DNA of 64,000 nt from Bilabrum cf. latius. Taxonomy: Eukaryota. Below, piece by piece: positions 5,329-63,910 of the stretch. The number at the start of each line of letters is the position of its first letter. The stretch's first letter is position 1. Location: contig OZ237767.1 of the NCBI GenBank assembly GCA_965178125.1, positions 1-64,000 of the forward strand, in the 5' to 3' direction. The notes beneath the pieces are model-generated. The model did no database searches. It saw nothing but the letters and a program-made list of their open reading frames with translations, and was not told the DNA's origin. The position numbers were made by a program, and so were the translations under genes.

Positions 5329-6948
5329 ATGCAGCCCAAGCACAACGAGATCTCCCAGACCATTGTGGACATCATCTTCAAGAAGCCGAGGGCAAACGCT
5401 GCCAAGACCCTGGTGGTCACACTGCACGGCTTCTTGAAGGGGACGGGCTGCGTGCTTGCGCCTGCAGAAGACGTGCGTGGCCGTGTTCAGGAGCACGTTC
5501 AGGCCGTGCTGGAGGACATGGAGGTCGACGTGAAGACCAAGGACAAACCGACAACTGATGCTGTCACCGACGCTTTCGCCAGCCGCGGAGGAGTGGAGGA
5601 CGGCGTCGCCAACTTCTTGTAGGCAGTCGCGGAGGCATGCGAAGATGACTGGAAGTTGACCAGAATTCGATGGCTGGCAAATGGGCGGACGGCACTGGCA
5701 TAGCGGAAGGTGCATGACATCTCCGGGTGGATCGTGAAAATGGCAAGGCGTCAAGGCAGCCGTTCCGAGGACAACGCCATGCTGGCAATCTTGCAGGAAG
5801 TCTTTGGGTCAGAGGATATGCAGACCTCCTGGTTCAACACCGAGGCCGACATGATGCCTGGAATCGTGGCTGTACCCCTACCAGGACCAGTTGGACGTCA
5901 CAAGGCCTACAGCGGCTCGGAAGTGGCCAAGGGCTCGGCTGGCCCGGCTCGAGGACGCTCAGCGGGACGATCATCGAGCAAGCAGCGGCGTGGTTCGCGC
6001 TCTAAGGCTAGCCGAGCGCACCACCTTGCTCTGCTCAGGCACGTTGCAGAGGAGAAGGACGAGGACGCATCCGACGTCGGCACCGATGATGACGGTGACT
6101 CAGGTGGGATAGCAGCAGCAGCCAAGTCCAACCGCTCTGCAGCTCGTCACAAGGGGAAGGCTCCTCGACGCACGGGCGCTGCATCGGGTGCAGGCAGGGG
6201 CACGGGAAGTGCCTCATCCTACGACCAGCAGGATGGAAGTGGGAGCGACAGTGAGGATGAGCACGATGGTGAGGCGGCTCCCAGTGACAACGACTCCGGG
6301 AACGACGAGGAGGGATCTGATTTCGACGAAGAGAAGGCAGAGGAGGAGGCGGAGATGCATGCATCAGGTATGCAGAGCCGCAAAGGGCGCTCGAATGGTC
6401 GCCTAAGAGCTCGTCGCGGGAAATCCCAGGCCCCAGCCCCGGCCCCAGCACCACCAGCACTACAAGCTGCGGCAGGAGCTGCAGGTCCAGCACCAGCACC
6501 ACCAGCACCTCAAGCTGCTGCAGGAGCCGCAGGTCCAGCACCAGCACCGCCAGCACCTCAAGCTGCTGCAGGAGCCGCAGGTCCAGCACCAGCACCGCCA
6601 GCACCTCAAGCTGCTGCAGGAGCTGCAGGTCAAGCACCAGTCCCGCCAGCACCTCAAGCTGATGCAGGAGCTGCAGGTCAAGCACCAGTCCCGCCAGCAC
6701 CTCAAGCTGCGGCCGTAGGTGCAGCCCCGATCACCGTGTCGGAGGTCCAAAAGTACAAGGACAACTCCAAGAGGATCGGGAAGCAGAAGCGCAAAGCTGG
6801 AAACCAGGTCCGGCTGTGCGATGTCCGTGAAGGCGAGAATGCAGACTGGCTACTGGAACGCTTGGAGCAGCGCATGGCCTACATCTCAGGAGTCCTGGAT
6901 GCCCGCCAAGCGGCCGCAGCAGCAGAAGCCGAAGAGGGGGAGCATTGA
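5329..6948 (+). CDS. Unknown ~539-aa protein with acidic tract, Pro/Ala repeats and basic C-terminus (TAG read as sense)
   Basis: ORFs 5077-5622 and 5710-6948 are in one frame, separated only by TAG at 5620 and 5701; ends TGA. Confidence 0.7.
6439..6726 (+). repeat. Coding 48-bp tandem repeat x6 (PAPAPPAPQAAAGAAG)
   Basis: Repeat visible in DNA and translation. Confidence 0.9.
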
Positions 6949-7016
6949 AATGCACAAATTCAAGACTATCCTCATTGTCACGCAAACCATGCATATCACT
7001 AGCGCACTCCACACAG

Positions 7017-9149: not shown

Positions 9150-9312
9150 ACCCTAACCCTAACCCTAACCCTAACCCTAACCCTAACCCTAACCCTAACC
9201 CTAACCCTAACCCTAACCCTAACCCTAACCCTAACCCTAACCCTAACCCTAACCCTAACCCTAACCCTAACCCTAACCCTAACCCTAACCCTAACCCTAA
9301 CCCTAACCCTAA
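9150..9312. repeat. Interstitial telomeric tract 2
   Basis: ~27 perfect CCCTAA units. Confidence 0.97.
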
Positions 9313-14162: not shown

Positions 14163-15818
14163 TCACATGCCTGCAGAAGAACCCCTCGAGGCCTCCGCCA
14201 GGGTCTCGAACTCCTTGATGACATCAACGCACCGATCATGACCTCCGTGCTTGGCCGCCTCCAAAGGGGTCACGATGGTACCGTCGGGCATGTGCCCTGG
14301 CAGTGAGAGGCCCCCAGCTAGGTGCCCAACTTTAAGGCGCTTGCTGAGCTCCAGCGGCCTGCCGTCTCTGGCCGCTATGAACACCTTCCCGGCATCCCTG
14401 TGCGCCTCGAAAGCCCGACGAAACTGCACTAATGCAAGTCGAGCTGCGTGTCGATCAGCTTTCTGCAGGAAGTAAGGATGGAACGTCCCAGAAAGCTCAT
14501 CACACTCAAACTTCGAAAAGTCAGCTTCAGACAGGAGCGTGTAGCCTGTCTCGAGGTTGCCGATTTGCTAGCCAAACGCGTCGATTTTGACTTGCAGAAG
14601 CCAGCGCAAAGTCTCGGCGAGGCGGTGCTTGTAAGCGATCATCTCTGGCAGCTGCATCAATGCTTTTGCCCGCCTATGGCTCTCCTTTAGGGCTTTCATG
14701 ACGTCGGCCTCTGTACCCTGTTCATAGTCCAAGAACCTGTCGATCACTGGCTAGGCACTCCCCAGGATGTTTCTGACTTGAGTGACGGGTACCAAGAATG
14801 CTTCTCGAAGTCGCTACTCCTCTCGAAGCGAGGCACAAGCGAAAAATGGGTATTCCCGATGTGATTCCCTTGCTTCCGATCCTGCATCGGTAGAGCCACT
14901 TGCAGCGCCCGGCTTCGATTCACCGTCGTCTCGTGACCCAGCTTCAGCCGACCCACCAGTCGCTGCCGCCGAAGTAGCAGCAGCTTCCCTTACTGCCTCT
15001 GCCGCCTCTCGCACCGCCTCGTACATGGGCGGCATGATTTCATCTTCATGCTCTTCCGTGCTTTGACCAGTGTCGTACAGCTGGACCACCTGAGCGGAAG
15101 CCGCCATAATATCTCTCAGCGATGCATACAGCCGATCAGTCCCGGGAAGGGAGCTTGCAGCGGTGTCATTCTGCATGAGATTGATGAAGCTACTGATCTG
15201 GTCGGCGGGCTGCTCCACGTCCCTGTGACGGTCGCAATCGTTGTTCATGACGGTCTCGATCTCGGCCACGAGGGCGAGGCACTCGTCGAGCCGCACCATG
15301 TAGCTGGTTAGGGCCTGTCCACAGGCGCTACTTGGTGGCTCTGAGTCTGGGTCCACCTTGCCTTCGCCGGCATCGCCACTGATGAACTGTCTTACTAGAA
15401 CCCGATCTTCCCCTTTGGTAATCTTTCCAAGATGGTATGCTACCAACTACTCCTTGGTTTTTAGATCTCCAAGCGGGTTGAAGCTGGCGCCGGCATGAAC
15501 GAGAATGGCGCATGCCGCATGGCTAGTTCTGCTAACCGGGGTCTAAGCATGATCTAACGCCGTTTTGCCATCCTGCGAGTAAGACCGACTGGATCTAGGG
15601 CGCCCTTCGATGGCATGGATGCTTAAGAGAAATTGCAGATATCCTACGTCGCCATGCTAAGTAAATCTTTCTCCGCGTAAGTTCGATGCGAAAGAGGTAC
15701 AAATGCACGCGTGCCTCACTTTGTCCTTTGTCTCCAAGTTGGCGCCGGCCGTAGCTAAAGCTGCAACAAACCCGGCCTAATTGCACTTAGCTGCAAAGAG
15801 CAAAGGCGTCTCTCCGCT
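14163..15818 (-). CDS. Ankyrin-repeat protein (5' end unresolved; TAG read as sense)
   Basis: SGETPLLFAAKCN*AGFVAALATAGANLETKDK|DGKTALDHA across GTGAGG...CGCAG intron 15573-15719; single frame to TGA 14163 with TAGs at 15777, 15543, 15447, 14814, 14751, 14568. Confidence 0.75.
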
Positions 15819-16883
15819 CTGCGCAGTGAGAGCCCGAGTTTCTAAACCAATTTTGACCGGGGGACTCCGCTAACTTGAGCAATGCCGGAAGTTCAACGTC
15901 ACTATTATAATGCTCTTCTTCATCAGTAGCAAGCGCACGGAATACTACCCTCCTAGCTTTTTTCCAAGGCTTCTTTTAAAAACTTAGTGCATCCGGCTTG
16001 CATCACGATCTCCGCCGCACCCACCCATCATAGCTCTGACCCTTGCACTTGAATCGATATCTTCAGGGTAAGTCTCAAAAACAGATTGTTTACAATGTAA
16101 GTCAGCAATAACCGCCTGGAAGTGAAATTGTACTGCTGGTCATGCTAAATTTTGGAAGTACTGCAATCTCTGGGGAGAAATGAATATCTATAATTTGCAC
16201 AGGGCCCTTTATGATTCCAGAGCTGGTATTGCTTTCAACCGGTTTCATATAACAACATTATTATTCTGAGGCTCACTCAATCCTCACTTTGCTCGAACTT
16301 ACATGTGATAGAAAACTTCTAAACATTCTTTCTAATATTGATTGGCGAATTTTGCACTATTATGCTTCATGACAGATTCATACTTACAATAATTTAGGTA
16401 TTGCTTTTTGTCTAAATATTTTGGGAGAAATTCTCATTCGATTCAGGTCAATCCATCAATTCATACAGTTTGGAATATAAGCATATCAAAGGGTACTCCA
16501 AGGTAGGTTTTGTGAGTGATACGATAACGGGCCAAGTAAGAAGCACTCCTGCTCGCATACAAGCATTCAGTCGACCCTTGTACAGGAAGATCAAGCAAAA
16601 CTAGTGGACAAATATATTTATTTGGAAGTTGTACTTCATCAGTTAAACTCAATTATCACAATAGAAAAAAGATTGAGTTTTGCAAGAGCTGCCAAAACCA
16701 AATAAGCAGACGAAAGCAGGAGCTTGAACCTTTGTGTTGCATTTGTTGAAAGATACGACGAGCACATTGCGAATTGACCAAACTCATTTGTGCTGTTCCT
16801 CCATGCATGCGTCCAATACCCAGTTCGTCAGTTTAACTGATCGCCATAAAACCCTGCATCCGCCCTAGGTGTGACACTACTCA

Positions 16884-17737: not shown

Positions 17738-20700
17738 TCAAGGCTACTAGGGCTTACCGGTAGTCGCTGGAATGCCAGTGGCGGCCGCTTGGGGTGCGTG
17801 CCCCCGCTAGCCCTACATGGGGTTGTGCTGCTCAATCATAAGGACTTGCGGCGCATTTGAGGCCGGACTTGTCGCCTTCTTTGAGCCGCACATGAAATAG
17901 TATGCGACGCCAACCGCCACCACTACTACAGCGACGCTTCCCGCGGTTCCTCCCAAGATCCCGCCGAGCTCGAAGGCACCACCACCGGCGTCAGTGCCGT
18001 CATCACTGGCAGCGTCGTCCGCGGCCGTCGCAGGCTCGTCCACAGGCGTAGAAGCGGTTGACCCGGTGCATGCATCCAGCTCGAAGCCCACGTCATCGTT
18101 CTCTGACATGGTGGCCGAGCCCAGTTCCATCTCATTCACGAGCACGACCCTCGCGAAGCCTAGCGTGGAACTGAGGGGCACATTCGAGAAGTCCATCGCG
18201 ACCTCTCCGAGGAACGCATCGCTTTGGACCTTGCCGGCGTCCATGCCCACGTTTGCCTCACCGCAGGATGATGCGGACTGCTGCAGCCTACGGGGCTGCC
18301 CTACTCCCTTGGAGGACCCAGTATTCAGGTTGCTCTCGAGGCTGCCTCCATTCACCACCTCTTTGGAAGCCGCTTCGGCTAGGCGCCGCCGCCCGCCCAA
18401 GTCGACTTTTTTCGCGCCCACCGTTGAGCTGAAGGAAGTGTATCCTGAGTATGCGCTCGTTGACACGGCAATGGAGAAGTACACGTCCTCGTCCCGACCT
18501 GCATCGTCCAGATCCGCGATAGGCACACTGACGTACCACCCAAAGCTGTCTTTGTCAAAGGAACTGAACACTTCTTCATCCAACAGCTGGGTGTCATCAA
18601 AACCAATCCATCCATCGTTAGCCCATGCACTCAGCTGGATATTGTCGGGGTCACCGCACGAGGAGTCCCCATCCCACGCGAAGTGGACGTCAATCTTGCT
18701 GCCAACTTTGAACAGGTAAGTGATGCGGGGGTTGGATATGCCTGACTCGCACGGAGGGTTGTTGGTGTCCACGTCCATGAGGGTGGACCAAGAAGAGGCG
18801 TCGCTCCAAGTGTTCCGGCGTCCATTCATCTGGACGGAGATGGTAAACTGGACCTAAAGACCGTCGTCGTCAATCTCGGAAGTCGGGATGTCGATGTAGT
18901 ACGAGGTGCCGCTTGTCTTCAGCCGAGAAGTGTAGTCCTTGTTTGTGAAAAGCCTCGTGTCATAGCCGATCGCCATGTCATTTTTCACTGCCGTGACACG
19001 GACCTTGTAGACGTCTCGGCAGATGTTGCCTGTCGACGCCGTAAAGCGGATGCGCACGACATCGGACGACGACAGCTCACTGGTGCTCGTGATGGTTGGC
19101 TTTGGCACATTAGAACTGTGGCACTTGTATGTGAAGAAGGCCGTTTTCGCGCTGTAGGTAGACAAGCTTGTCCCGGACGATGTCGTGACCGCTAGAGCCA
19201 CTTTAACGTCTCGATCGGCTGCAGCATCGAAGTCACTCAGCTTGGCTAGCACGTAGTCGCCGCCGGAGTCAGAGCGAACCTGGTAGCTCTTGCCGGAAAA
19301 CAGCGGCGACTCGAACCCGAGGCTTGTCTCAGACCATGCTGACACACGCACTCCCGTCACAGAGCCACATGTACTCGACGAGTGCGTAAATCGTAACTCC
19401 AGGTAGTTGAAGGCTCCACCGGGAGGGTCATCGGAGTAGAGAGTCTAAGTGATCGATGGAGCCGCAGGAGTGCACGTCGAGCTGCTTCCGCCGCCGTCGT
19501 CGTCGTCGTCACTGCTGCCGCCCAAGTTGACTTCGATCGCGCCCAACGTTGAGCTGAAGGAAGTGTATCCCGAGTATGCGCTCGTCGACACGGCAATGGA
19601 GAAGTACACGTCCTCGTCCCGACCTGCATCGTCCAGATCCGCGATAGGCACACTGACGTACCACCCAAAGCTGTCTTTGTCAAAGGAACTGAACACTTCT
19701 TCATCCATCAGCTGGGTATCATAGAGCCATCCATCGTCAGCCCATGCACTCAGCTGGATATTGTCGGGGTCACCGCACGAGGAGTCCCCATCCCACGCGA
19801 AGTGGACGTCAATCTTGCTGCCAACTTTGAACAGGTAAGTGATGCGGGGGTTGGAGATGCCTCCGTTACACGGAACGCTGCCGTCGTCGTCATCCTGTCT
19901 GGAGCTGCCGCCGTCGTCATCCTGTCTGGAGCTGCCGCCGTCGTCATCCTGTCTGGAGCTGCCGCCGTCGTCATCCTGTCTGGAGCTGCCGTCGTCGTCA
20001 TCCTGTCTGGAGCTGCCGTCGTCGTCATCCTGTCTGGAGCTGCCGTCGTCGTCATCCTGTCTGGAGCTGCCGTCGTCGTCATCCTGTCTGGAGCTGCCGT
20101 CGTCGTCATCAGCTCCGCCCGTTGTCGATGGTGTGTGGGATTCAATCCGACTGATCGCTTTCGCTGGCTCTCCAGGCACGCCGATCTTCGGGGCCAGCTG
20201 CATGCCGGTGAACAAGTCCACAGGGATGAAATCGTAGATCCACAGCGTCAGCAGCGGTCCCACGTCCACCACCGCTCGGCCTGGTGTGACCTCCCCGTCA
20301 TTTGATTGAATGACTGTCAAGGGCCGGAATTCAAAGCCCCAGTCGGCGTCGGCAATGATTGTGCCCCCGTCAACCGCGCGGGACAGCGAGTCGCATCTGA
20401 GCTCCTTCCAGCCACCGTTATCCTGTGCCGTCGAGCAACCCATATTCGCCCAGCAAGTGCCAGAGCTGAAGCATATCGAGACACAGAAGCAATCGTCGGA
20501 TGCCTGCAGTGCATTTGAATAGCTGAAACCCAGCTCAGCGAAGGCAAAGGCAGACGCCCCCACCGTCAGCTTGGTCGGAGCTAGCTGCTGGTTGTTGCCC
20601 CGGGCGGCGATTGACACGTCTGATCCAATTACGATTGGAATGATGCCGACGTTGAAACGGATCGTAGGAAGCTCTATGGGAGCGTGCAAAGGCTCAGCAA

Positions 20701-22611
20701 TTTCGGATCCTCCGGCGTTGGTTAGGTCTACCACCAGATCAGCGTTCACCTCGGCGTCACCCCGAAGCACGACCCGCATCTTGGCCAGGCCTGGGGAGTA
20801 CTCGCTCGGAAATCCGATGGAGTTGACGGCGGTGACTTGGGAATGTCCTGAGAACTCGAACTCGAAGGATGCCTCCACATAGGCGAAGCTGCAAGGTCAA
20901 GGAGAAGGTCAGGCGGAGCACCACGAAAGGCATGCGGTTGGCTACTCTGCACTAAAACCCTGCCCACACTGGTCGGTGATCCTAGCAAACCACTCCGCAT
21001 TCGGAAAATCTACACAGAATTGGCCGCAGAACCAGAAACAATCAAGCGTAGACGCGATGTTGCTGCGCTCGATGTGCATGAACGCGGAAGCTCACGTGTC
21101 CTCGAAGTAAATGATGTCTTGCACCAAGTCGATACGGTCGTTCACGGGGGAATCCACGTCGAAGTCATAATTAAAGCCCCACTGAAAGAGCTGCCATTCG
21201 CAATCATAGTTGAAGTAGGCTGTGGCAGTGCTGATGACAATGCCAAGTCCTTGTTGGTCGCACTCGGAGGCCGTGCGCCGACCGCGGCCCGTGGCCCGGG
21301 AGGTCCTCAGACGCTGCTTGACAGCTGCCGGAGCCTTGTCGACGGTGCCGTGAGCCGCCTTGCTCTATGCATGCTCGGGAACTATTTTAAGTCTGACGTC
21401 AAAAGCATTTGAGGCCATGGAGGGCGGCACCATCTCTGCACGGAGGCGTGTGACCCACAACGTACTCTCTGAGTCGCCAGTCACGCGCTGCGGCTCCGTT
21501 GCCGTTACAACCATGACAGTCTGTCCTTCGGGCAAGCCGGTGCTGTGGCTCTTCTGACCTTTGAGATTCGCATGCAGGCCACCGCTGGTGCCGTATACAC
21601 CGGCACCGAGGCGCTCAGGGCACCCCCATCCCTACTCGAATACGAGAGCCTGCCCGGGCTGAGCTAGGAACGGCAAGACCGAGGTGAGCATCATCTCATC
21701 GCCGCGTCCAGGGCACTCAACAGACAGTACTTCTGGCTTGTCTTCGAGCACGACGGTGTCGTTGCGGAGGACGACGTGGTATTCAACCTCAGAAGAGCCA
21801 ATGCCCGGCGCCTCGAGAGCGGCCGAGTGCAGGTACCTGCCGCCATGCCTCCCTGCCGAGGCCTCAGCCGTCTCGATGGGTAAGGTGCGACGCGCAATGT
21901 GAAGGAATCCGGTGGGAGCAGATGGTTCGAACGCTCTTGCATGGAAGACGGTTGCACGGCGGGAGCCGTCCTGGGAGCTTCTTGCGCCCATCCCGTGCGT
22001 CTCGATGGCGCCTCGCAGCTCTCTCGCATGATGGCTTGATACAGAGCCTTGAGGCACATTGTCGATGTTTGCATGTACAACGGTCACTAATAGGCCCAAG
22101 AGATCGCCAAGGGATCGAATTTGGCTCAGCGAGGCCGTCACGTGGCATGGCTCGGCTTGGCCACAGAGCTCAACCACTGCTCCGTGAAGAGATGCGCGGC
22201 AGCGCGTGGTCTGCGGCACAGAGAAATAACAAGGACAAATTGCAATGGAATTGCAATCGTGGATGACGAGACGCTCTCTGCGTCAGGGGTAAATTCGATC
22301 ATTTCACCCCCTCGCGCTTCGCGCCCCAGAAACAGTTGTAGACTATCTATTGCAGACTATGGCTGCAAACCTGAGCGGCTGACGCGATATCTTACGATAT
22401 TAAGATTTAACACGGAGTCGCAAACCCCTGAGAAGTCTACTATTGGCGATTCTGCGGCCGGCTTGAGGACCACCCCAACTTTTTCGTGGTAGTGCGTATC
22501 GTAAGAGGCCGTACCGGTTATCGTCGTGCTGCCACTCGCCGGAAGGGCCACAACAACAGCAACAAGACATTGTGCTGCGAACGCAGCTGCAAGTATGGTT
22601 GCAACGAGCAT
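17738..22611 (-). CDS. Large secreted/type I membrane surface protein with duplicated ectodomain module (TAG read as sense)
   Basis: Signal peptide MLVATILAAAFAAQCLVAVVVA; C-terminal TM (SVAVVVVAVGVAYYFM); ORF pieces join in frame at TAGs 21632, 21365, 19445, 18854, 17813, 17807, 17747, 17744 (also 22357); introns 21063-21095 and 20889-20969; one unresolved junction near 22150-22350; ends TGA. Confidence 0.75.
19876..20110 (-). repeat. Coding 27-bp tandem repeat x8 (DDDD/GGSSRQ)
   Basis: Repeat visible in DNA and translation. Confidence 0.9.
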
Positions 22612-26743: not shown

Positions 26744-26903
26744 AGGGAACAGGTCGTGGATGCCCTGAGAACGAGCAGAAGACGGCGGAAAATGCCAACA
26801 GAAGACCACAGGGCGATCTTGCGACCATAATGATACACCAGAACCCAAGGTGAATAATCCGATTCTTGGCCTGTTCAACAACCAACTAGACAACATGAAC
26901 GAC

Positions 26904-28340: not shown

Positions 28341-28671
28341 TGAACTAATCTCCGTTTCAATATCGTGCTATTATGTATCGAATCAACACCGCGCAAGTAT
28401 ATAGCGATGGAAGGAGTTTACGTCCTCTCTGTGAGGGCATCCGATTCGTTGTCGTCGCGAGCCTCCCTGAGGACCCTCATTTCCGGCTTCACACGGTGGC
28501 TGCCGGAGTCCAGGCGGGGCGCTCCGCTCCCTGCATCCTGTTTGCAGAGCTAGTCAACAAGGCAGTACAAGGTATTCAGATTCAGTCTGTACCTATCTGC
28601 CACGTTTCACTTTCGGACCGATTTTTTGTTTGGATTCATTCGGCAGAGCCATCGACAACGGCTCCGAAAAG

Positions 28672-41598: not shown

Positions 41599-42005
41599 CG
41601 TCGTGTGCCATAGGCTGCGCCTATGATTGTCGTCGCTAGTCGTTGTTTGGGTTGCACAGTAGCACAGCAGGGAGAATACATTGAACTCAGAACAAGCTAA
41701 CGTGCCTTAATTTCGAGTGCACTGATCACACCCACGTTCTGACAGAGCCGACCACTGGCAGTTCCACGAGGACAAGTCAGTCTTTAGTATTTCGACTTAC
41801 GTTTCCGACCAAGTGATCCAAAACAGATGTGAGAAGTAAACCATGCAAGCAAAATCCCACTAGGCACCACCTACCTGACGTTTTGAGGTTAAGGGTGCCT
41901 TGGAAGAGCAGTCTTTCTGTGGCGTGCCTCCCATCGTAACCCTTACACTGCTCTCTCTTATCCAGACGCAGTCTGGTGATAGCTACAACCGTATCTATCG
42001 CGATT

Positions 42006-45000: not shown

Positions 45001-48000
45001 CTTGCGTCACCGTGTCGTCGGGGGATCGAAACGACACGCACATCGAGTGCGGGCAGCTGGAGGCCCCCTGGTCTAGTAACGATGTCGTCGTCACAACGGG
45101 GTCTCAATCGGTGGCTGCCTTCGGGGAGTTCCAGTTCTAGCAGCCAACTGCTGTGACGAGTGTATCACCCTCCGTGCTGCCTACCGCAGGAGGTTCCGTC
45201 ACGGTGCAGGGCGAGGGATTCGGGAACTCGCCCATTGGCATCAGCGTCAAAGTAGGAAGCCTGCAGGCGACGGACATCCAGCCAGCTGCGGATGGCCGGT
45301 CGCTGACATGCACCGTGCCTCCTGGCAATGGAAAAGACCTGGACGTGATTGTGTCAACCACCCAGAATGGCGCGAGCAGGCCTGGATCTGCCGCCGTGTC
45401 CTTCCTCCCGCCGGAGGTCCGCTGGATCGCAGCCGCGGGCTCTGCCACCGAGGATTTCATGCAAGACCCGGCCGTGCTGGCGGTGGCCAGGGGCCGGTCA
45501 TCGGTGTACCTCGGGGAACAGTCAGTTCGGATGCAGGCAGGTGTGACGAATGCAGGCATGGCAATCGGGCAGCTTGACCGGGTGAGGCTGGCAGGCAACG
45601 GCTTCAGCCTGCGAGCCTACAACCTGGCTGTTCTGTCCACCAACGCAACCACGGGTGATATCGATACGATTGCATTCGATGTCGATGCGATCAGCCGCAG
45701 AAATGTGTCGACATTGCCTGAGATCGCAAAGGATGTAGCCCAGAGCGCGGGCCGGTCGTGGCCGGTGCAGCTCTTCTTCGAGGTTGCTGGGCAAGCCTCC
45801 CCAGCAGCTGACCTTGGCTAGGCCTCCGACTACCCAATCGACGCAGCGTGGAGATCCGCCTCTCAGTCAACGGCCCCGCCTGCGTACCAGCCCTTCGTGT
45901 GGATCCTTGGCGGGCCCCAGCTGACCCTCATCGAACCCACCACTGTACCGACGGCCGGCTCCATCGACTTGGCCAGGCCAGGAAACGGAACCGAGATCGA
46001 CAGCCTGATGCAGTCCCTGGGAATCGGCAGCATGGAGGCCGTCGCGCAGGGTACCTCGCTGTTCCCGGCAGGCCAGCGGTCGATGGTTCGCCCGTTGGCC
46101 CAGGTCGCGCCTGCTGCATCTGGAGGTCTGGACCTCGACGAGAGCGAGATTTTGAGACAGGGCCTGGCGCGCATCCGAGGCGTGGGATTCGGGCACGCGC
46201 CGTGGGTACTCCACAGCGTGACCATCGGGGGCGTGCTTTCCCCTCTTGTTCTCTGGGCTAATCCCAGCGAGCTGTTCGCGGTGGTGCCACCGGACACCGG
46301 AATGGGAGGTCGGGTCTCTGTGCGGACCGTTGCGAACGTGACAGAGCCGGGTCAAGACGATGGCGGCCTACAGCTGGAGGTTGACCGCATGCGGCCCGCG
46401 GTGGAATCCGTATCATTTGCCTTGGCCAGCTCTCAGGACGGTCGGACTGTTGCGTATGCGGGAGAGCCTGACCTACTTGTGCATGTCGTCGCTTCCAATG
46501 CTGGGTCGGACACGGACCGGTGGTCCAACCTGCTGCTCGTCTCCAGGAGATGGTCCATTCCCTGCCTCAATCTATCGGTCACCTTAAGGCAGATCGGTCA
46601 GGTGCGGCGGTTCCAGTGTGATATTTCCCTCGGTCTCGCGAACGAGGTTCTCAGCCCATCGGGTCAGCCCACTGGCAACAACGACACCCTGTTAGACATG
46701 CTCATCGACGGTTTCTCGGAGCAGGTGTCAGTTTCACTCGTGGTTGACGGCATCCAGACAGCTGACCCTGCTTGGAGCAGCGAGCAGGCCCCGTAGGACG
46801 AGCCCTCCGGGTCAGCCACGGCCTCTCCTGGCCCCGTCGCGTGGGTAGTACACCGTCCACTCGTCACGCAGACCGAGCCCTCTCTGATCGCCACGGAGGG
46901 TCTGTTGGGCAACCGCATCGACGCGGACGAAAGCGCAGGGGGCACACCGACCGCTGGATCCCTGCAGGCTAGGCTCAGGGAGGCCTTGGACGGCTACCTG
47001 GTCCGACTAGGGGGTGCCTCTGGGGCGGGTCTGCCGGACGTGGTGGAGGTCGGGGCGATCCTGCAAGGTGGCTAGAGTGTGACGAGTGCAGACCTGCTCG
47101 AAGCTGGGCTGGTGGTCGTGCGGGGCAGCGCCATGGGCCACTCGCTGCAAGCTTTGCTAAGCGTGTCGATTGCGGGAGTGGGTGACTCGCCGCTCGTGCT
47201 GTGGCTCTCACAATCGGAGCTTGCATTCGTGCCCCCAGCTGGAACGGGTGCAGGGCGCCAGCTCCTCGTGAAGACGATCGGGTCTCAGGTCAGCGAGGAT
47301 GCCACCGTGAGGTATTCTTCCCCCCAGGTGACGGGGCTGGACCCGCCGTACGGGCTTACTGGGCTAGGGCACCTGTCCTCGTTCTCGGTCAGCGGCCGGC
47401 ACTTTGGAAGCAACGCATCGGCCCTGCAACGCATCGTGGTGGGTGGACGAGCCTGTCGGAATGCGCGATATCTAACCCAAACCACCGTGCAGTGCATCGA
47501 CGCACCCTCGAACTCATGGGCTTCTCGCCGGGTCACCGTGGTAGTCGACGGGCAGGAGAGTTTTCCCAACGCGATCTTCACGCCTCTAGATCCCCCCACT
47601 GTGCGGGCCGTGTCCCCTGCCGTCGCAAAGGTGGGCCAGACCATCCTCGTGCTCGGTGACAACTTTGGCCAGGTACCCTCTGACGTGGCACGGGTTACCA
47701 TTGCCGGGTAGCCGTGCCTCAGCCTGCAGCACGAGGGCCCCACGGCACTGACCTGCGACATGCCCGAGCCAGCTGCCAGCTTGCAGCAGCAGGCACTGTC
47801 CGACCCAAGAGCACTTCGGGACCTGCCGGTCGTGGTGGAATCTGCGGCCGGGGTTGCCTCCCCGGCCAGCCCCAACGCCACGGTCACATTTGCCACGCTG
47901 GGCACACCGCTGGACGTGGCACCCGAGAACATCGTGAGCTGGCGAGCGCCTGGGAAAGCGGACCGGCTGGTCCTGCGATGGTCCCTGCCCGACTCGGACT

Positions 48001-51000
48001 ACGACACGGACGGGATCGAGCCGGTGAGCACGTTCGACGTCGAGACATGGGCTGCCGATTCCACCACAGGTGACTTCCTCGGGGAAGGTACGGAGGAGAG
48101 CGGCTCTGCAGTGACGCAGCAGCAGGTGCGGAGGACTGACGTCACCGAGCAACTGACCAGGGACGACATACTGGTGTTCCGATACAACGTACCGGCCTTG
48201 GAGGACACGCCGATGCGGGTGCGGATCCGGGGCTTCAGCGACGCAGGGCCGGGCCCGTGGTCGGGCTGGTCCCTGCCCGTGCCGTCCACCTGCGTGGAGG
48301 GCGAGTACCTGGACACCTCCTCCAGTGTAGGGACGTGGGAGTGCAAGCCATGCGACGACACCATCGTGCAGTGCACTGGCGCAGTGGCACAGCTCGCTGC
48401 TGCGGCCCCAGGCTACCAGCGGCTCCCGTGGACCGGTAGTGCCGTTGCGTTTGCAGAGTGCCCAATGGGGCCCCTCACCTGCTTGGGTGGCCAAAGTGGC
48501 GAGGATGATGAGACAGCTCGTGGAGCTGGCGGCAACAACAGCCAGACTGCAGCAGGTCCGCAGCCGCGTTTACTCCAGGCCTCCACCGCGGTTTAGCTGC
48601 CCTCGCTGGACGAAGCGCTGGCTCAGGACTCGCCCGCTAGCAGTGGAGGGGCCGGGGCATCGGCTGGCGCGCTTGTGGGCCAGGCAAGGATTGGATGGTA
48701 TAGTGAGCGGTGCGCTGATGGGTATTCTGGACTGCTATGCGCTACCTGCGTCCCTGGCTACACTCGCTGGGGCACGTACGAGTGCAGGCGTTGTGCCGAT
48801 GCCACATACATCATCCTTGCCGCGGCGGGTGTTGGAGTGATGATCCTGGCTGGAATCATTGCCCTGTCGGCGCAGGCGCTGAAGCGGGGCTCCGAGGAGG
48901 AGCAGGAGATCATGGAGAAAGCGGTCAAGATGTGGAGGAGGCGCTTGTCAAGGAACAAGGTGCGGGTCGGCAGCACAGGCACCAAGCAGCTCTCAGTTCC
49001 GATGCAAGTCGGCGTCGACAAGGGACCAAGGTTCGCAGCGAACGTCTTGGCTCGATCCAGTAAGCGCATTGGGTCCGCCGAGGATTCCGATTCGGATACA
49101 TCCGTGGGAGGCATGCGGTTCGAGTCAAGTGCGGAGCTGACCGACGCAGCATCGACGAAGCAGACTGCCATTGCACCCTCTAGGCCATCACCCACGCCAG
49201 CAAGACCCGAGGCAGGCACTACCACAAAGCAAGTAGCAGGCCAAGACAAGCCAGCCGTGGACATGGACGCCAGCGTGCCCCAGAGGGCAGTGCTCGTCAG
49301 GCAGGCCACGGAGAGGTTCGACGCTGAGGCATCCGATTCGATCGGAGTAGCCGTCATCAAGATCGCCTTCTCGCACCTGCAGACCATCGCGATCGCCTCC
49401 CAGTTCGACCTCGAGTGGCCTCAAAGCCTGCACGACATGTTCGCCGCCTTCAGCACCACGACCTCCGCTGCATCGGACGTCATCTCGCTCGACTGCATGC
49501 TCAACAGCCTGGCACCAGCTGACACCCAGGGCGATTGGACTGGGGTCGCGGGCCGGGCCAGCAGCGCCTTGCTTGGCGCTCTGAACGCCAGCTCGAACGG
49601 AAGCACCGCGGGAACGCACACCGCCGACGCGTGGCCCCACCCCACCGCAGAAGACGTGGAAGTTCTCCGAGAAGCTGAGAGGAGCCACGCCCTCGCCCTG
49701 GCTGAGAGCCCCCCTCCTCAGTCGTGGCTCGTCGAGGGCATGCCCGCCCAGTCTTCCTACTTCGCGTCTGCGCTCGTCATCCTGTCGTTCCCTTTGGTGC
49801 TTGCCCTCGTGATCGCTTTGCTGTGGTTCGTGATGGAGGCCATCGATGGCTGCCTGTTCATGCCCCGCCGTGGAGAGGAGGAGGACAGCGAGGCGGGCAG
49901 GGAAGGAGACTCCGAGGACAAGGAGGGGTCCGGCAAGGGCGAAGCAGGGCCCAACCAGGAAAATACAGGCTCCGACAATGACCGATACAGGCGAGGGCCT
50001 TGCTGCGGCGTGATGGCAGACGAGCGCAGGACCTCAAGTCTCCTGGTCAAACTGCCCCTGCTCAAAGTGCCTGTGCAGGCCGCGCGACTGCCGTACCTCT
50101 CCAAGGTGGTGGTCACAATGATCGTGGTGGCGTTCATATTGCACATCACCGTGACCGACACCTCCCTGGGTCTGCTGACGTGCACTGACGTGGAGTCGAG
50201 TTTCCAGCTTGGAAGCGAGAGTGGGGACGGTCCCGCAGCAGCCCCTCTTGCGGGATGTCCGGCCGGCACCGAGCACCGTCGGCTGGTGCGAGATCTGAAC
50301 GTGTGCTGCTACAACTCCGAGGCAATGGCGTTCACATACGGAGTGGGCATCCCTGGGGTGATCCTGTACGCTATCGGCATCCCGCTGGCAGCCCTTGCCC
50401 TGCTACTGAGGTACAAGGACGACATGCACAAGCCGCAAACCCGGGCGCTGTTGAGCTTCCTGAGGGCGGGCTTCAGGCGAGACGTGCTGTACTGGGAGGT
50501 GGTCATCATGCTGCGGAAGTTCGCCATCTCCGCAGTGGTTGTGTTCCTTGAACCTTTCGGGGTCCGGATCCAGACGTATGCCTCTTTGGCCATCTTGTTT
50601 GCCGTGACGGTGGCACATGTGAACATGCAGCCGTACTCGCACAAGAGGCTCAACAACCTCGAGTTCGGGGTGCTGTGCACGGCGTTTGCCACCTTCGAGG
50701 CTGGCCTGTTCCTGCACGACCCCAGCTCCGGGCAGGCCACCCGCCTGTGCGCCACGCTGCTGGTGATCGTTGCCAACAGTGCCGCACTGGGATGGGCCGC
50801 CTACATCGCCGCAAAAGACCTCTTGCCGTCTGCGATGAACTCGCTGAGTGGCATGCTTGGGCTGGGTGGTGGGGCTGGTGGTGCGGCGGGCGGGGCAGCG
50901 GCTAGCCAGCTGTCTCAGAGAGGACTGGGGGAGGGGCAGGGCGGCGGCGATACCATGGTCGGGGCGCTTGTGGGTGGGTGCTGCGGGTGCTGCGGGTGCT

Positions 51001-51206
51001 TGGTAGCCGCCGGTGCAAGTGCAATGGGCCGCTCCAGGCGCGATCTGGGTACAGCGGCGAGCACCCGCGAGGCCAAGGTCCAGTCGGCGCGAGACGCCGC
51101 ACCGGGGGCAGCGGCCGCGGCAATGAGCAGCCAAAGAGATTCGCACGAAGATGCGGCGTCGAATCCAGGGCAGAATATGGATCGGAACTGCGCGGAGGAA
51201 GTGTGA
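42006..51206 (+). CDS. ~3066-aa receptor-like protein: signal peptide, FG-GAP (integrin-alpha-like) repeats, multiple IPT/TIG repeats, FN3, Cys-rich region, multi-pass TM C-terminus (TAG read as sense)
   Basis: Single intronless frame with 12 TAGs (42381, 42528, 43632, 43710, 43995, 44997, 45138, 45819, 46794, 47073, 47709, 48594); LGDMDLDG/LGDINSDG..LAVG; P.VTSVSP..GG.VTV.G.NFG; CADGYSGLLCATCVPGY; YWEVVIMLRK; ends TGA. Confidence 0.9.
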
Positions 51207-55950: not shown

Positions 55951-57636
55951 TCAACGAATCCTGCTCAGTACCAGACGGTCTTCTACGTCCTCCTCCAGCA
56001 GCGGTCTGCCCACCCACCACCCGGCCTCCTCAAGCCGATCGATCCACTGCTGGCCCAGCCCACAGCTCGCACCCCGCCCACCTTCACCCCCTGCATATTC
56101 ACGGCCTGTCTCATCGGCGAGCCTGCCAAACACCAGATCATTCGACCTCTCGATCGCCCTATCCACTAGTTCCCTGGACACCCCCCCTGCCCCCTCCCCC
56201 TCCGCCAAGATGCACCTCGCTGCCTCCGCCCTCAGGTGCCCCAGCAGCACCGCGCGCCAGTCCGCACCCACCGGGATAGACAGGCACATCTGCACGCTAC
56301 AATCACCACTTTCACCACCATCATCCCGCACCCGCGCCCACACCATGGCCCCCCGCTCCTTGTTCCCTGCTTCCATGGAGGCAGCTGCTCGGCATGCCTC
56401 CGTCGCAAGCCCGCACTGGTCGAGGTCACCTGCCTAGATCTTCGGGCTGATCACAAGCGGGATCCGGGCCTCCCACTTTGACCACCTCCGGTAGGCATCG
56501 TCAGCTGACCCAGCAGAAGGAGCAGCAGTGCCGATTCTGATTCCGAGTGCCCGGGTCACTCGAGGTGTGACGAATAGGCGCTCTGCTCTGCGGGCGTCCT
56601 CTGGACTCGGCATCATCGCGCCCCACGCAGTCTGGCTCGGCCCACTGGCACTGGATTCGCTCGACAATGGGCCAGGACCAGCAACCGCTTCAGACACATG
56701 GGGCAGGAAGGCCGCAGCGCACAGCCCCGCCCTCTCCTGGTTGAGGGTCGGGAGTGCCAGCTCTCGAAGGGCCTGCCAGAGGCAGAGCAGGTGCCCCGAC
56801 GAGATGGTCGCAAACGCAACGAGAGCGCCCACCGCTGGATCCACGGCCGATCCCTCGCACACCCAGGGAACAAACGAGGCCACCCCCATCCCCAGCGCGG
56901 TGCCTGCCACAGAGGCAGCGATCGACTGGGAGCCCGATTTGGCCGTGACATCGGCGAGCGTGCCTCCCTGGGCCAGCGACTGGTGGATGCCGGCCCTTGT
57001 GGCGCTGGCACTGAGCCAAGCCACGTTCTTGGCGACATTCGCGACGGCAGCCACGGGCAGGAACAGGCCCGGCATGAGAGGGAGTGCGCATTCCAGGAGA
57101 CAGGCGGCGTCAAGGGCCGCGGCACTCGCGAGTCGCCACCTCTTCACGTCAGTGTCGTACTTACTGCTGACTGCTCCAGCAAACAGAATGCCTCCCAGCT
57201 GCCCCAGCCCGTCCTTTAGCACCCATTGCAAGGAGGCCGCTAAGGGAACCGAGCCGGCCCCCACCCCGACCGCATGAAGCAGCGCCTGCATGGACAGCAC
57301 CCCTCCTGCTGCGGAGAGAACCGCACTTGCTCCATGCCACAGCGCATATGGCATATACGTAGGCGATACTGAGGACGGGTACCCTTTCGGGAGCAGCTGC
57401 GCCGGGATCGCAGTGGCTGCCGTACTCACTGCCCGCATTGCATCAGCAAGTTCCCATGTGGGCGGCGCAGTTTCATCCCCATCGATACGAGAGATGGATT
57501 TGCCATGCTAAGTGATTTCTACCGGTGGGATCTCGCTGACTTTCTTATTCCAATGGTGCAGGTGGCGGCAACGAAAGTGAGGCCTTGTTGTCGCGGCCAG
57601 ACGGATGCATGGACGTAAGCCCCTTGCCCGATGCAT
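55951..57636 (-). CDS. RUS1/DUF647 (root UVB sensitive) family protein with Arg-rich transit-like N-terminus (TAG read as sense)
   Basis: LLPKGYPSSVSPTY, WVLKDGLGQLG, DVKRWRL, ADVTAKSGSQ, LPTLNQER; TAGs at 57508 and 56434; ends TGA. Confidence 0.88.
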
Positions 57637-59900: not shown

Positions 59901-62900
59901 TTATCCGCTTGCACCACTAAAACGACCAACCATCGCATCCACAGCCTTCTTGACGCTAATTGGGCCGGCCAAGCGCCCCGACGCAGGGAGGTGGTACGAG
60001 GCAGATCGAATCTCATCCTCGATACATGAACCGCTACATGGAAGGGCACTTGGGTGCGCCCCCAGCGTCCAGAATGGCATCGTAGCTGCCATCTCTTCTT
60101 GCAGGCGGATACCCGCAGCCGCGAGTGCCTGCCTGGCCTAGTACGAGAGGGATCGTGGGCTCGGCACCGAGTGCAAAGAGAAAGAGATATGCTGCCTCGC
60201 ACGACTGCACAGCTCGCTGGACACACCTTCAAACAACCCGTCTGGCACCCTGTGCACCGACGGAGCGACTGCGGCCTGAAGCGCCGGGCACACTTTATAA
60301 TGAGCAATAGGAACTTTACCTGCTGCCTGGCTGCCACCGGCGGTCTGGGCATCTCCAGAAGCCAGCATGCAACGACCGCTGGCGGGGAGCTCGGCGGTGT
60401 CCGTCATTGCCGCCCTGTACGCATCAAACCACTGCAGCCACACGATCCGGGCCAGGTACCACTGGGCTCGTTTAAAATGACCCGGTGCGAGTTGGGCTTC
60501 GTGATCGGTTGCCGACTGCGGTCTGCTGTCTCGGGCGCTCCGGGGACTTGCCTAATCGTGCAACACATGGTGCAGCAAGAGGTTGTCACATGTCTGCACC
60601 AGATCACACACCATCTGACGGCAGCAAGCCTTCAGATCTGCCTGCGCCACGGGAGGCTCCTCTTCAAGCTTGCACCCGAAAAACTGGACCGAGAAGGATT
60701 CGCTAGGCTTCCACCCACACTGGTCCGTCCTCAGCCCGAGCCTGAACCTCCGTCGCACATCGAGAGCATCCGGGAGTGTCGCGGGCCCAGCTAATATTCC
60801 CTCTGTGTGCCTCTGCATGGTGCCGTGGTGGCGCTAGGTTGCACTGGCATGCCGATCCACGGAGCACGCGTGACACAGGTTCACCGTGGCAAGGCCGAGC
60901 AGGCAGGCACATGTAACCGCTGCAATGTGTGCGACTTCGAGGCTGCTTTGCGGAAGCAGTAACGCCCCTGACCCTCCCACGACCAGAATCGCAACCACCA
61001 GGCAACCACAAACGATCGTCACGTCAAGGCACTTCTCGAAATAGTCAGCCCGCCGCGAAGGTCCGAAGAGTTCGAAGACCCACTTAAGCGGCCTGAATCC
61101 GAACTCGTCCTCGAGAGGAATTTCTCCGATTTGGAGTGCAATAACTACTAATCCACACAGCCTGACTAGCTTGGTGCACACATCAAGCATAACCCCGAGA
61201 CAGTATAAAACCAAAAAAACGTACTGTCCTGCTTCAATGTCGCGCAGGTGTTGATTCCAATACGTAAATATGGGAGCTGTAAGTGGCATCGAGAAAACCA
61301 AAACTGCCACGGGAGGCACAGTGAGACACACCTTGGATGACATCAGTGCTGTGTACATTGTACGCGTAGTAGCCTCGTTTGCAGGATTGCCGCGGTTGCG
61401 ATGTCCCACGCAAAATATACCAGGGAGACTATGGCCTTGGTGTTGCAGCGCCTTCCACCACATGGAAGCAAGCACAATACTGCACAAAACGACAGCTGAC
61501 ATGCCCCATATGGGCCAATTCTGCGCCCCAAGGACAATGGATGCTGTCAACTCAGCCTGAGTGAATGCAACCTTCAGATGCTTGGATGGCGAGTAACACG
61601 GGAATCGACTTGTTCTGGTGCTCCCGGTACTCTGAGACACGACTCGTCCCGTGCCGAGCCCAGCGGCCGCGGCCTGCCACGACCGATCACTGTGCCATGC
61701 AGTGATGTCCTCTGGAAGCATATCCATGTGATCCGCCAGACACATCCGCGTATCGTCGCAAGAGGTGTACAGCCCCCTTGACACGATGCTATCCAGTTGA
61801 ATTGCCATGTACATGGCACCCACAAGCGAGCTCGCAATGCTGAGCAGCATGGTCGACGTCCACAGTGACAGGCAGGGCATTTGCGAATTCAATACCACTG
61901 AGGGTCTCCTATGCACATGTTCAGCAGCACCGCAGGACAGCCAGTTCACCGGCGGCAGGCTTGCCTCGCTGAGGTCGCCATCGGCAGGGGTGTAGTCGCT
62001 CGGGATTACGCATGCCAGGCAGTGGGTGATGGCAGACGGCAAACTGAACGGCCTGGGCATTTGTGACCAAAGCACACTTCGAACACCTCTGTCCCACAGT
62101 GGAGCGATGCACGGGCGAAGCATCCAGAAGGCCAGAGCACCCAGGCAAGCCAGCACGTGCGGCGTGCTTCTATGAAGCAGTGCGGACTGCACCTGCTCGT
62201 CGTCCAAGTCCAAACCAGCACCACCTGAAGAATCATCTGCCTCAGCTATGATCAGGCTAAACTGCATCATGGCCATGGGCATGGCACTGACCGCAACGGC
62301 AACAACCAGCCATGCAACGAGCAGAAGGCCGGCGATGGCCGAGCTTGCCCTGCACCAGGTCAGCATGCGATACCCAGTCCCCAGCTGCATCAGCCGTTTG
62401 CCCTCTTCCAGCTTCTCCTGAAGCCTCTCTCTCGAGCTGCGCTCCTCGCTGAGCGCACGATCTCGCTTTTGCTGCGTGCTCGCGACAGCAGCGGCAGTCA
62501 GGCGCATTGCGACTGAGCGATCGATCCCTTGGCCTTTGAGCATGTATTCGGGCAGACTGCGAGAGGCTGGATCGGGACCAGCACCTGCACTGGGCCGAAG
62601 TGGTGACGCAGCGGGTAGTCCGGGTACATCTGAGGGAGCTAATGCCCCTGTCATTGGGTCTGACGACGACGAAGCAGCCGGCTCGCTTGCAGCGTGAGGG
62701 GAGCTTGAGATGGAGCCCGTCCGAGAGGACTCCTGTCGCACGACTGCTTGTGTCCGCGAGCATCTGCCTGTTGCTTGATGCCTCCACTGCTTGGTTGGGC
62801 ATTCCGATCTGCGAGCCAAGATCGATTGCTCGTTCGCAATATATCCGATCCAGTCCGGCAGCTGCTTGTCCTTGCCTGGTGTCCCAAGATCCATGCTAGG

Positions 62901-63910
62901 CTTCCTGTGCATTGTGGCCGCTGTCTAGTGCATGCCGATCGCCTTGCCAATCTCGATGCACTCGAGTCTCGCCCAAAGCAAGACAGCATCTCGCAGTTGG
63001 TGGAGAGGAAGCGAAACAAGACATGCCATGGCGACAGGTCGCCCGCCCTCTTCAGCGCCATCCTCGTGGCCTGCGAGTGCGACACGAGGCAGCTCTGAGC
63101 CCGCTTTCTATTCATCTCCTCGATCACTCCTACCAGCGGTGCCGCCATCCAATGCACCTGCCCCGCGGCCCTTCGGTGCTGCTGCAGCCCTGTCGACAGC
63201 CTCGATATCGACGGGACCGTTATGCAGCAAGCCCACGAGGCCTTCCTGCTCCTGGAGGATTCCCCGGAGGGCAACAGCAGCGGGCGAGTCGTCCTCATCT
63301 TTCAGCTCTAGAATTTCACACGGAGAGAGCAATCGTCTGCCCCTTGCCGCTGCTCTCTGGTGCAAGGAGCGGCAGATTACGGCTCCCAGCCTGGTTTGGA
63401 AGGCCAGACACACAAGCTTCTCGGTCTGCCCCGGCAACTGCTGCAGCAACCGAAACAGTTTGTGCTTGTACGACATTTCAATTTGTCCGAATGAAGCTGC
63501 AATTGGTGCTGCATCTGCCAGAGGATCTCTGATCAGTACTGCGAGAACGTGAGCGAGTACCTGAACCCGACGCACCGCAGCAAACCCCCTTAGAGCAGCT
63601 GCAGGCATCTCAGCCCTCTATTGGCTCGATAAATCATACTGGCGCATCAATGCATTGCGCCAGTACGTGTCTAGCAGCTTTGCAGATGATACGCAGCGAA
63701 GAGTTGTACATGTAGCCTCGAGGCGGGCCACGTCTGGCAGCTCCAGCATGTGGTAAATCCTAGCAACAATAGCTGCGACACTTAAGTCAATTTGAGATTG
63801 TACAAGCTTGGCGCAGGATCCTTAGTAATGCAAGTACTGTCTTTGAATTCAAAATGAACCTCACCAGGCTTGAACTGGGTAAATCGCTCCAAGATGCATT
63901 GAGAAGCCAT
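59901..63910 (-). CDS. Multi-pass membrane protein with N-terminal F-box-like motif (TAG read as sense)
   Basis: ATG 63910, 44-nt intron 63821-63864, ARIYHMLELPDVARLEATCTTLR; one frame with TAGs at 63618, 63108, 62925, 60834, 60552, 60138; ends TAA. Confidence 0.7.

Follow-up and report, generated by a model that had tools for sequence, protein, structure and literature searches.

Changes of the nuclear genetic code are rare, and changes that split UAG from UAA are rarer still. In many ciliates, Hexamita, Streblomastix, ulvophytes and Amoeboaphelidium protococcarum both codons are read as glutamine (UAR = Gln, table 6), and in peritrich ciliates and Blastocrithidia both are read as glutamate. 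Ambiguous codes, in which a stop codon is an amino acid inside genes and a terminator near some 3' ends, have precedents in Condylostoma, the karyorelicts and Amoebophrya sp. Kv, and in some prokaryotes UAG is the codon of pyrrolysine. According to the relevant passages of three published accounts, UAG is read as glutamine, with UAA kept as a stop, in Iotanema spirale (Fornicata), Protocruzia tuzeti and some phyllopharyngean ciliates (PMC5304391, PMC11687900, PMC9161772); the type of code in which UAG alone means glutamine (the NCBI table 15 type) is already known from these other lineages. Outside the ciliates, the corresponding section of one of them gives UAG alone as leucine in the uncultured rhizarian exLh and as serine in Scotinosphaera, and its cases of a UAG/UAA split, as of December 2024, comprise only exLh, Iotanema, Scotinosphaera, Protocruzia, one more uncultured ciliate and a few phyllopharyngeans (PMC11687900). 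In the ambiguous all-stop codes, as far as the excerpts of a further source go, all three stops occur in frame, and the DNA of Amoebophrya Kv is AT-rich (PMC12005148).

The DNA analysed here is a stretch of 64 kb (the window). Very probably, it comes from a subtelomeric part of the nuclear genome of a GC-rich eukaryote with few introns, whose clade-wide code uses UAG as a sense codon, with glutamine as its most likely meaning, and UGA and UAA as terminators. The window has a GC content of about 59%, few introns and a TTAGGG-type telomere array at its start, a combination that we take to be unlike ciliate macronuclear DNA. As in Iotanema, Protocruzia and the phyllopharyngeans, only UAG is reassigned, glutamine is the best fit, and both UAA and UGA terminate. 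The window resembles exLh and Scotinosphaera, both outside the ciliates, in having a UAG-only reassignment, and Amoebophrya sp. ex Karlodinium veneficum, Blastocrithidia and Condylostoma in having in-frame stops in essential protist genes. The main stop is UGA (TGA ends 12 of 15 large ORFs and TAA three), whereas UAA is dominant in Iotanema by the account in part of PMC5304391. A further difference concerns the caviomonads, where the close relative Euthynema uses the standard code, as stated in the pertinent part of PMC9161772, while the trait of the window is common to sequences down to 61% SPT6 identity.

With the standard code, the stop-to-stop ORFs of the window reach at most 1027 codons. 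This maximum is unchanged when TAA is read as sense and rises to 1316 codons with TGA as sense; with TAG as sense, uninterrupted frames of 3088, 2358, 1306, 1196 and 1052 codons appear. The 15 large ORFs contain 76 TAGs in total, and none of them requires TAG as its stop, as the initial annotation had stated. Its claim of more than 50 in-frame TAGs within intact genes free of internal TAA and TGA was also borne out: nine ORFs (11,447 codons, NAGLU included) have 57 TAGs downstream of the first ATG, with no TAA and no TGA. Frame 0 of the eight TAG-bearing ORFs (10,655 codons) holds 60 TAGs, no TAA and no TGA, zeros that arise partly by construction, as TAA and TGA define the ORF bounds; in the two remaining frames, TAA and TGA together number 205 and 239, and TAG 78 and 58. 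The GC3 periodicity favours frame 0 on both sides of 20 of 47 TAGs, so the frame is not clearly marked by this measure. Pfam domains and homologues of the window genes extend over the TAG sites. Of the presumed glutamine codons, about 10% are UAG. If UAR were glutamine with the A/G bias of CAR, the window should contain about 15 TAA codons; none was observed. The UAR = Gln systems likewise turned a stop codon into a glutamine codon, but a code of this type was rejected, with no in-frame TAA in the 11,447 window codons and in the 2265 codons of the homologous SPT6 of an independent metagenome contig, L001, where about 13 would be expected if UAA shared glutamine.

Table 1. Main features of the 64-kb window. 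In-frame TAGs are counted over the whole ORF, with those past the first ATG in brackets.
Feature	Position	Strand	In-frame TAG	Terminator	Further details
Weak ankyrin-repeat ORF	14163..15983	-	9 (8)	TGA	Pfam matches under the curated cut-off
Repeat-rich secreted or membrane protein ORF	17738..20896	-	6 (6)	TGA	
NAGLU (GH89)	24083..27166	-	0		Pfam NAGLU 4.3e-109
SBF-like/BASS (SLC10A7-type) transporter	26904..28370	-	5 (4)	TGA	Pfam SBF_like 5.8e-57
WW-domain protein	28471..32061	+	12 (12)	TAA	1196 codons; Pfam WW 1.6e-4
SPT6	33489..40565	-	8 (7)	TGA	2358-codon single open frame
Receptor 5' UTR intron	40987..41110	+			GT..AG, 124 nt; removed by splicing in X6 and X7 contigs
Second receptor 5' UTR intron	41829..41971	+			GT..AG, 143 nt; absent from spliced X6 record 23
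IPT/TIG - TRP-like membrane receptor	41940..51206	+	12 (12)	TGA	3088 codons; Pfam TIG 1.3e-32
RUS1 / DUF647 (UVB_sens_prot)	55951..57636	-	2 (2)	TGA	Pfam 2.6e-66
Multi-pass membrane protein ORF	59901..63821	-	6 (6)	TAA	

Pfam supported the gene names SPT6, IPT/TIG receptor, WW protein, SBF-like/BASS transporter, RUS1, NAGLU and, weakly, ankyrin protein; the ORF called an F-box protein in the initial annotation (59901..63821) matched no Pfam family, F-box included. The TAG counts of that annotation agree with ours for six of seven genes; the ankyrin ORF had been given six and contains eight or nine, depending on the start chosen. SPT6 carries the domains SH2_2 (4.4e-44), HHH_7 and Spt6_S1, its homologues cover residues 575-2200, and its TAGs lie at residues 3, 60, 575, 857, 1231, 1689, 1829 and 2158. 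In the WW domain, the TAG immediately 5' of the second Trp is a glutamine in the best PDB match, WBP4. As an internal control, NAGLU has an open frame even with the standard code. The searches of the 64-kb window found no tRNA gene and no Rfam match, and eRF1 is not encoded there.

Public runs from four studies contain contigs of the same DNA. Those of runs X1, X5, X6 and X7, aligned on positions 26904-46903, show no differing letters and no indels, although X1-X5 are possibly the window's own source, hence not independent, and alone cannot exclude a consensus error. The contigs of X6 and X7 skip a GT..AG intron, i.e., they are spliced, cDNA-type contigs, which points to an RNA origin, the run types having been guessed automatically and X6 having been marked 'probably DNA'. 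Record 23 of X6 is spliced from 41828 to 41972 and carries nine receptor TAGs unchanged; of the 34 TAG codons between 26904 and 46903, the listed pieces of the X6 and X7 contigs cover 21 and are free of differences. Judged from assembled contigs, as opposed to raw reads, mature mRNA apparently retains the UAGs, with no sign of editing or of their removal by splicing, and the proposed check for TAG in transcripts turned out in favour of the reassignment.

Similar sequences from relatives carry the same trait. The L001 contig encodes an SPT6 about 60-61% identical to that of the window, open in one frame over its 2265 codons, with 16 TAGs, no TAA and no TGA; it shares one TAG site with the window, at SPT6 residue 2158. 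Several predicted proteins of relatives break at TAGs. The predicted receptor P0172 (95% identity) ends exactly before TAG 1020, the BASS proteins P0021 and P0171 (93%) are bounded by TAG 113 at the start and by TAG 481 at the end, and the predicted SPT6 fragment P0180 ends before a TAG of L001. The SPT6 stop itself is at the same residue in the window and in the 95% relative P0179. These comparisons indicate that the UAG reassignment is a property of a clade, seen in relatives whose proteins are about 95%, 76% and 61% identical, and it may be old enough to be shared by sequences at 61% SPT6 identity. The SPT6 of the more distant relatives P0004-P0006 is predicted as single proteins of 1789-2308 residues, so these lineages may keep the standard code.

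Named sequences among the matches reach at most 46% identity for BASS and 27% for SPT6. In a FastTree of SPT6 (19 rows), the window falls among unnamed sequences and away from both the fungi and the nucleariid Nk52. An aphelid origin is therefore not supported. Amoeboaphelidium is a parasite of algae, and small shares of the window DNA are listed in metagenome runs labelled 'algae' and 'protist', but such a listing provides no evidence of a likeness.

As regards the amino acid, the residues opposite TAG in all 23 pairs are Gln in seven, Glu in four, Lys in three, Leu in one and Ser in none. The 20 window/L001 pairs comprise Q5, E4, K2, R2, A2 and one each of M, G, D, L and P, and those in a well-aligned context Q5, E2, R, K and A. 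P0179 has glutamine at SPT6 TAG 2158, preceded by 225 identical residues, and P0022 (76%) has glutamine at BASS TAG 113, a column that is variable among 150 homologues (T31, K30, G15, Q13, N12, R10). Six likelihood rankings, from three data sets and two substitution models, place glutamine at the top, with lysine 4-9 nats and glutamate 4-15 nats below. Leucine and serine were rejected on their scarcity opposite TAG and on a poor likelihood fit: Leu is outside the top six in all six rankings, and Ser lies 21.6 nats under Gln in the sole ranking whose top six lists it. About 32% of the TAG partners in the window/L001 alignment are Gln or TAG, close to the self-conservation of Gln there (36%), so that TAG turns over much as Gln itself does. 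It seems most likely from these alignments that UAG encodes glutamine, a call made on 23 sites; as a single change in the first base of TAG gives a codon for Q, K or E, part of the glutamine signal could be mutational.

Alternative readings of the TAGs were weighed against this one. That UAG is a sense codon for glutamate or lysine is very unlikely, notwithstanding the Glu and Lys partners opposite TAG listed above. In the C-terminal half of SPT6, P0180 covers two TAG sites of the window, residues 1689 and 1829; both face glutamate in P0180/L001, and column 1829 holds glutamate in four of 16 other homologues (P0004, P0006, P0014 and P0018). Nevertheless, glutamine stands in each of the two nearest relatives that are informative (95% and 76%), both alternatives fall below glutamine with all three data sets and both models, and glutamate, which keeps itself at 55% of the window/L001 sites, makes up only four of 22 TAG partners. 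It is somewhat easier to imagine, though still unlikely, that UAG is ambiguous, a sense codon inside genes and a terminator near some 3' ends. The BASS gene has a TAG eight codons before its TGA, which is where the protein predictions for the 93% relatives stop, and the repeat protein has four of its TAGs within the final 25 codons. Yet these predictions are apparently gene calls under the standard code, which would end at any TAG, and if its TAGs are read as glutamine, the repeat protein ends in an ordinary Q/P-rich tail. Moreover, TAG is a required stop in no large ORF, and the known ambiguous codes differ from the window, where in-frame TGA and TAA were never seen; an ambiguous all-stop code was rejected on this absence. 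The DNA is also GC-rich, unlike that of Amoebophrya Kv.

It is extremely improbable that the TAGs are spurious or do not survive to translation, whether as CAG>TAG consensus errors, by RNA editing, as micro-introns or within decaying pseudogenes, and we found no support for this. The agreement letter for letter between contigs from runs of four studies, the TAGs retained in spliced contigs, and the 16 TAGs of the independent metagenome relative, one of them at a common site, all speak against it. In pseudogenes, TGA, TAA and frameshifts would accrue too; the 11,447 codons contain none of these, in contrast to the many off-frame TAA and TGA codons, and the exclusion of pseudogenisation in the initial annotation stands. 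Hardly credible at all is the reading that ribosomes, working with the standard code, get past the TAGs through programmed readthrough, pyrrolysine or some comparable recoding signal, for which we found no support beyond the prokaryotic use of UAG for pyrrolysine. The 57 sites are scattered over nine genes with no relation to one another, and most occupy positions of low conservation that change from relative to relative (one of 22 sites is common to L001), which is the pattern of an ordinary codon and not of signal-dependent recoding. UAG as a sense codon in a variant nuclear code, as claimed initially, is supported for the 64-kb window by the identical TAGs in four runs, the spliced contigs, L001 and the breaks in relatives' proteins; its application to the whole genome is an extrapolation.

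With UAG as a glutamine codon, the decoder would be a tRNA-Gln with a CUA anticodon, which a single mutation separates from tRNA-Gln(CUG) and which would read UAG and not UAA, and eRF1 would have lost efficient recognition of UAG. Changes weakening this recognition would be expected in the eRF1 N-domain motifs GTS, NIKS and YxCxxxF, as named in PMC5304391. We tentatively consider it possible that the window represents a protist clade outside the ciliates, fornicates, the rhizarian exLh and the green algae, in which UAG alone has been reassigned to glutamine in a GC-rich genome with UGA as the main stop.

Gene calling under the standard code shatters the genes of this lineage, and SPT6, the receptor and BASS of the relatives are in the databases only as fragments ending at TAG. 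Until a table with TAG = Gln is used, the annotation, the BUSCO scores and the phylogenomic placement of the lineage will remain wrong. The case sits in a GC-rich, intron-poor genome for which assemblies of both DNA type and spliced cDNA type exist in public runs. If P0004-P0006 keep the standard code, the reassignment could be bracketed on the tree. A further clade-wide case would add independent evidence on the ways in which eRF1 and a tRNA(CUA) can separate UAG from UAA and, if true, would be one that is not predicted by AT-driven codon-capture ideas.

The distribution of stop codons indicates that UAG is almost certainly a sense codon in this DNA. Read with the standard code, the 64-kb window has no stop-to-stop frame longer than 1027 codons. 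Reading TAG as sense yields frames of 3088, 2358, 1306, 1196 and 1052 codons; the same operation on TAA leaves the top frame lengths unchanged, and on TGA it gives a longest frame of 1316 codons. Frame 0 of the eight TAG-bearing ORFs (10,655 codons) contains 60 TAGs and neither TAA nor TGA, as proposed in the initial annotation, where the exons were described as free of both triplets. The two other frames of these ORFs contain 78 and 58 TAGs, and 205 and 239 TAA and TGA triplets taken together, so in-frame TAG occurs like any trinucleotide, and TAA and TGA are shut out. Past the first ATG, 57 TAGs were counted across nine ORFs (11,447 codons). All 15 window ORFs examined end with TGA (12) or TAA (3), in line with the earlier statement that no resolved gene needs TAG as its stop, and the TAG counts reported earlier were reproduced for six of seven genes. 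GC3 periodicity, best in frame 0 on both flanks at only 20 of 47 TAGs, was uninformative. The tail of the repeat protein becomes Q/P-rich when TAG is translated as Gln.

The genes and other features are listed in the table below. A Pfam search with the ORF previously called an F-box protein gave no match. The window SPT6 is unusually long (~2350 residues, compared to 1370-1823 in most matches); it carries inserts of acidic and of Gly/Ala-rich composition, and its C-terminal tail contains repeated GGSRWG motifs. The SPT6 proteins of two relatives, database entries P0005 and P0006, are likewise long (2070 and 2308 residues). The stretch resembling the NAGLU region may represent a fragment of a gene or a repeat common to both places. 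The GC content is 51-71% per 4-kb block, the genes are large and nearly intron-free, and no tRNA genes or Rfam families were found within the 64-kb window. A TTAGGG-type telomere array, (ACCCTA)x162, opens the window. Next comes a 331-bp satellite that appears again at 7-12 kb, where it alternates with interstitial blocks of 27, 27 and 76 ACCCTA units. Such a layout points either to a nested subtelomere or to a join made in scaffolding.

Genes, introns, repeats and other features located in the window
Feature	Position	Strand	Description
SPT6	33489-40565	-	Pfam SH2_2 (4.4e-44), HHH_7, Spt6_S1
Receptor	41940-51206	+	IPT/TIG domains and TRP-like membrane part (Pfam)
WW-domain protein	28471-32061	+	Pfam
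SBF-like/BASS transporter	26904-28370	-	Pfam, 5.8e-57
RUS1/DUF647			Pfam, 2.6e-66
Ankyrin ORF			Weak Pfam match
NAGLU	24-27 kb (gene region)		Pfam, 4.3e-109; zero TAG
Intron 1	40987-41110		124 nt, GT..AG, receptor 5' UTR; skipped by an X6 contig and an X7 contig
Intron 2	41829-41971		GT..AG, receptor 5' UTR; skipped by X6 record 23
Repeat arrays	1-977, 974-1756, 7016-11817, 9150-9312, 10413-10575, 12007-12460		
ORFs between repeat arrays	1840-3954, 5056-6948		
Short match to NAGLU region	16787-17515		~80% identity, 36-37 residues
Repeat protein tail	17738-17815		Four TAGs within last 25 codons ahead of TGA
Two similar ORFs	51481-52830, 53679-54848		Mutual identity 24% over 217 residues (weak); no Pfam family
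Scaffold gap	53681-53880		200 N, flanked by the two similar ORFs

Contigs from four public sequencing runs were aligned to positions 26904-46903, and neither mismatches nor indels were listed. Run X1, with a flat depth of ~12, may be the source of the window assembly. Two further studies supplied runs X6 and X7; the RNA or DNA kind of X6-X8 was guessed ('RNA?'), and no run carrying this DNA is recorded as RNA. Since contigs of X6 and X7 skip a GT..AG intron, they are probably of cDNA type. The two introns in the 5' UTR of the receptor gene are the sole ones seen in the compared 20 kb, and past the second of them X6 record 23 continues through the receptor gene. The listed contig pieces of X6 and X7 overlie 21 of the 34 TAG codons of the compared stretch, and nine of these 21 are on the spliced record 23. 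This persistence argues, at the level of assembled contigs, against editing, micro-introns or consensus error as the source of the TAGs. The same DNA, without a differing letter in the contigs, is present in the X1-X8 runs under four organism labels from four studies; either the labels are names of one organism, or the organism travels with other cultures.

Database homologues reveal the same trait outside the window, and in the protein collections the kin of this organism are represented by fragments only. Protein P0172 (95% identity to the receptor) has its C-terminal end directly ahead of the TAG at residue 1020, and P0021 and P0171 (93% identity to BASS) start just past TAG 113 and stop right ahead of TAG 481. 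Such breaks are the effect of standard-code gene calling on a TAG-sense genome. The metagenome contig L001 (6796 nt) contains a single frame open from end to end, with 2265 codons including 16 TAG, 0 TAA and 0 TGA; its product is an SPT6 with about 60% identity to that of the window (1326/2209 aligned positions), and one of its TAGs coincides with residue 2158 of the window SPT6. The richness of the L001 frame in TAG, the lack of TAA and TGA and the common TAG site indicate that the UAG-sense trait is a property of a clade. A scan of genome contigs for SPT6 relatives found none. Another relative of the receptor, P0173 (~90%), ends just ahead of residue 532, which is TGG (Trp) in the window (43533-43535); this end may represent a TAG or other stop in the relative, or a curtailed prediction.

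The amino acid inserted at UAG is very probably glutamine. The TAG at SPT6 residue 2158 corresponds to Gln in P0179, a 95% relative in which the preceding 225 residues are identical, and BASS TAG 113 corresponds to Gln in P0022 (76% relative). In the WW domain, the TAG ahead of the second Trp faces Gln in the best PDB match. In 20 more pairs of the window/L001 alignment, the residues facing TAG were Q5 E4 K2 R2 A2 M G D L P, and well-aligned context only gave Q5 E2 R K A. Likelihoods were computed for three data sets under two substitution models, an empirical one from the window/L001 alignment and BLOSUM62. Gln ranked top in all three data sets, with Lys 4-9 nats and Glu 4-15 nats below; Ser was 21.6 nats under Gln in the sole ranking listing it, and Leu was outside the top six in every ranking. 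In the window/L001 alignment, TAG faces Gln or another TAG in ~32% of cases, close to the self-conservation of 36% for Gln; that of Glu is 55%. Mutation may add to the Gln/Lys/Glu signal, because all three are one-step neighbours of TAG through the first base. When SPT6 was aligned to 17 distant homologues, the columns holding TAG varied or contained gaps and did not settle the residue. The self-comparison of window ORFs for paralogues was dominated by the 331-bp satellite, and outside it only R, M, S, T and S faced TAG, in very weak alignments. A neighbour-composition profile of the TAG sites placed many residues within ~2 nats and did not discriminate between them.

Among CAR codons, the share of CAA is 21% for the window ORFs and 45% for L001. 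A UAR=Gln code with the A/G bias of CAR would predict ~15 TAA for the window and ~13 for L001; none was observed in either, which distinguishes the window code from UAR=Gln codes. Reading of UAG only would require a tRNA with anticodon CUA, since C at the first anticodon position does not pair with the final A of UAA. A tRNA-Gln(CUA) would be one mutation away from tRNA-Gln(CUG), and changes in eRF1 would be expected alongside. PMC5304391 describes an altered GTS motif in the eRF1 of Iotanema and, in that of the rhizarian exLh, an Ala where the human protein has Leu69.

The best database matches of SPT6 showed 31-41% identity, and the best named one, nucleariid Nk52, 27%. The nearest named rows for BASS were a partial 'Symbiodinium sp. 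KB8' protein (46%), Hondaea (39%) and Ancoracysta (37%); the first, encoded on a 2-kb contig and also the nearest named row in the BASS tree, may be a contaminant. An ESM Atlas search with NAGLU returned only broad eukaryote clusters. A FastTree phylogeny of 19 SPT6 rows, which is small, unrooted, single-gene and accompanied by composition warnings, grouped the window and L001 with five further rows and kept them separate from fungi, animals, Nk52 and plants. An aphelid origin was considered because Amoeboaphelidium reads both TAG and TAA as Gln (PMC6299283); it is unsupported by the SPT6 tree, and in-frame TAA is absent. Amoebophrya sp. Kv is described in PMC12005148 as AT-rich with all three stops in frame, and assignment to it is unsupported for a GC-rich window with only TAG in frame. 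A link to Iotanema is likewise unsupported; among caviomonads the code change is limited to this genus according to PMC9161772.

In the full texts searched, with subscription journals and supplements outside the scope, no UAG-only code was found in a GC-rich non-ciliate lineage beyond the cases already described, among them Iotanema, the rhizarian exLh and Scotinosphaera. It is possible, if somewhat doubtful, that the lineage is unreported for a sense UAG; its code may already be known to others, given the limited scope of the search and the sequencing of the organism in several recent studies. Its UAG=Gln assignment with UAA still a stop is shared with Iotanema, Protocruzia and some phyllopharyngean ciliates (PMC11687900). 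The window code is at least one more case of this kind, in a lineage whose genome is GC-rich, whose main stop is UGA and where the trait extends across a clade.
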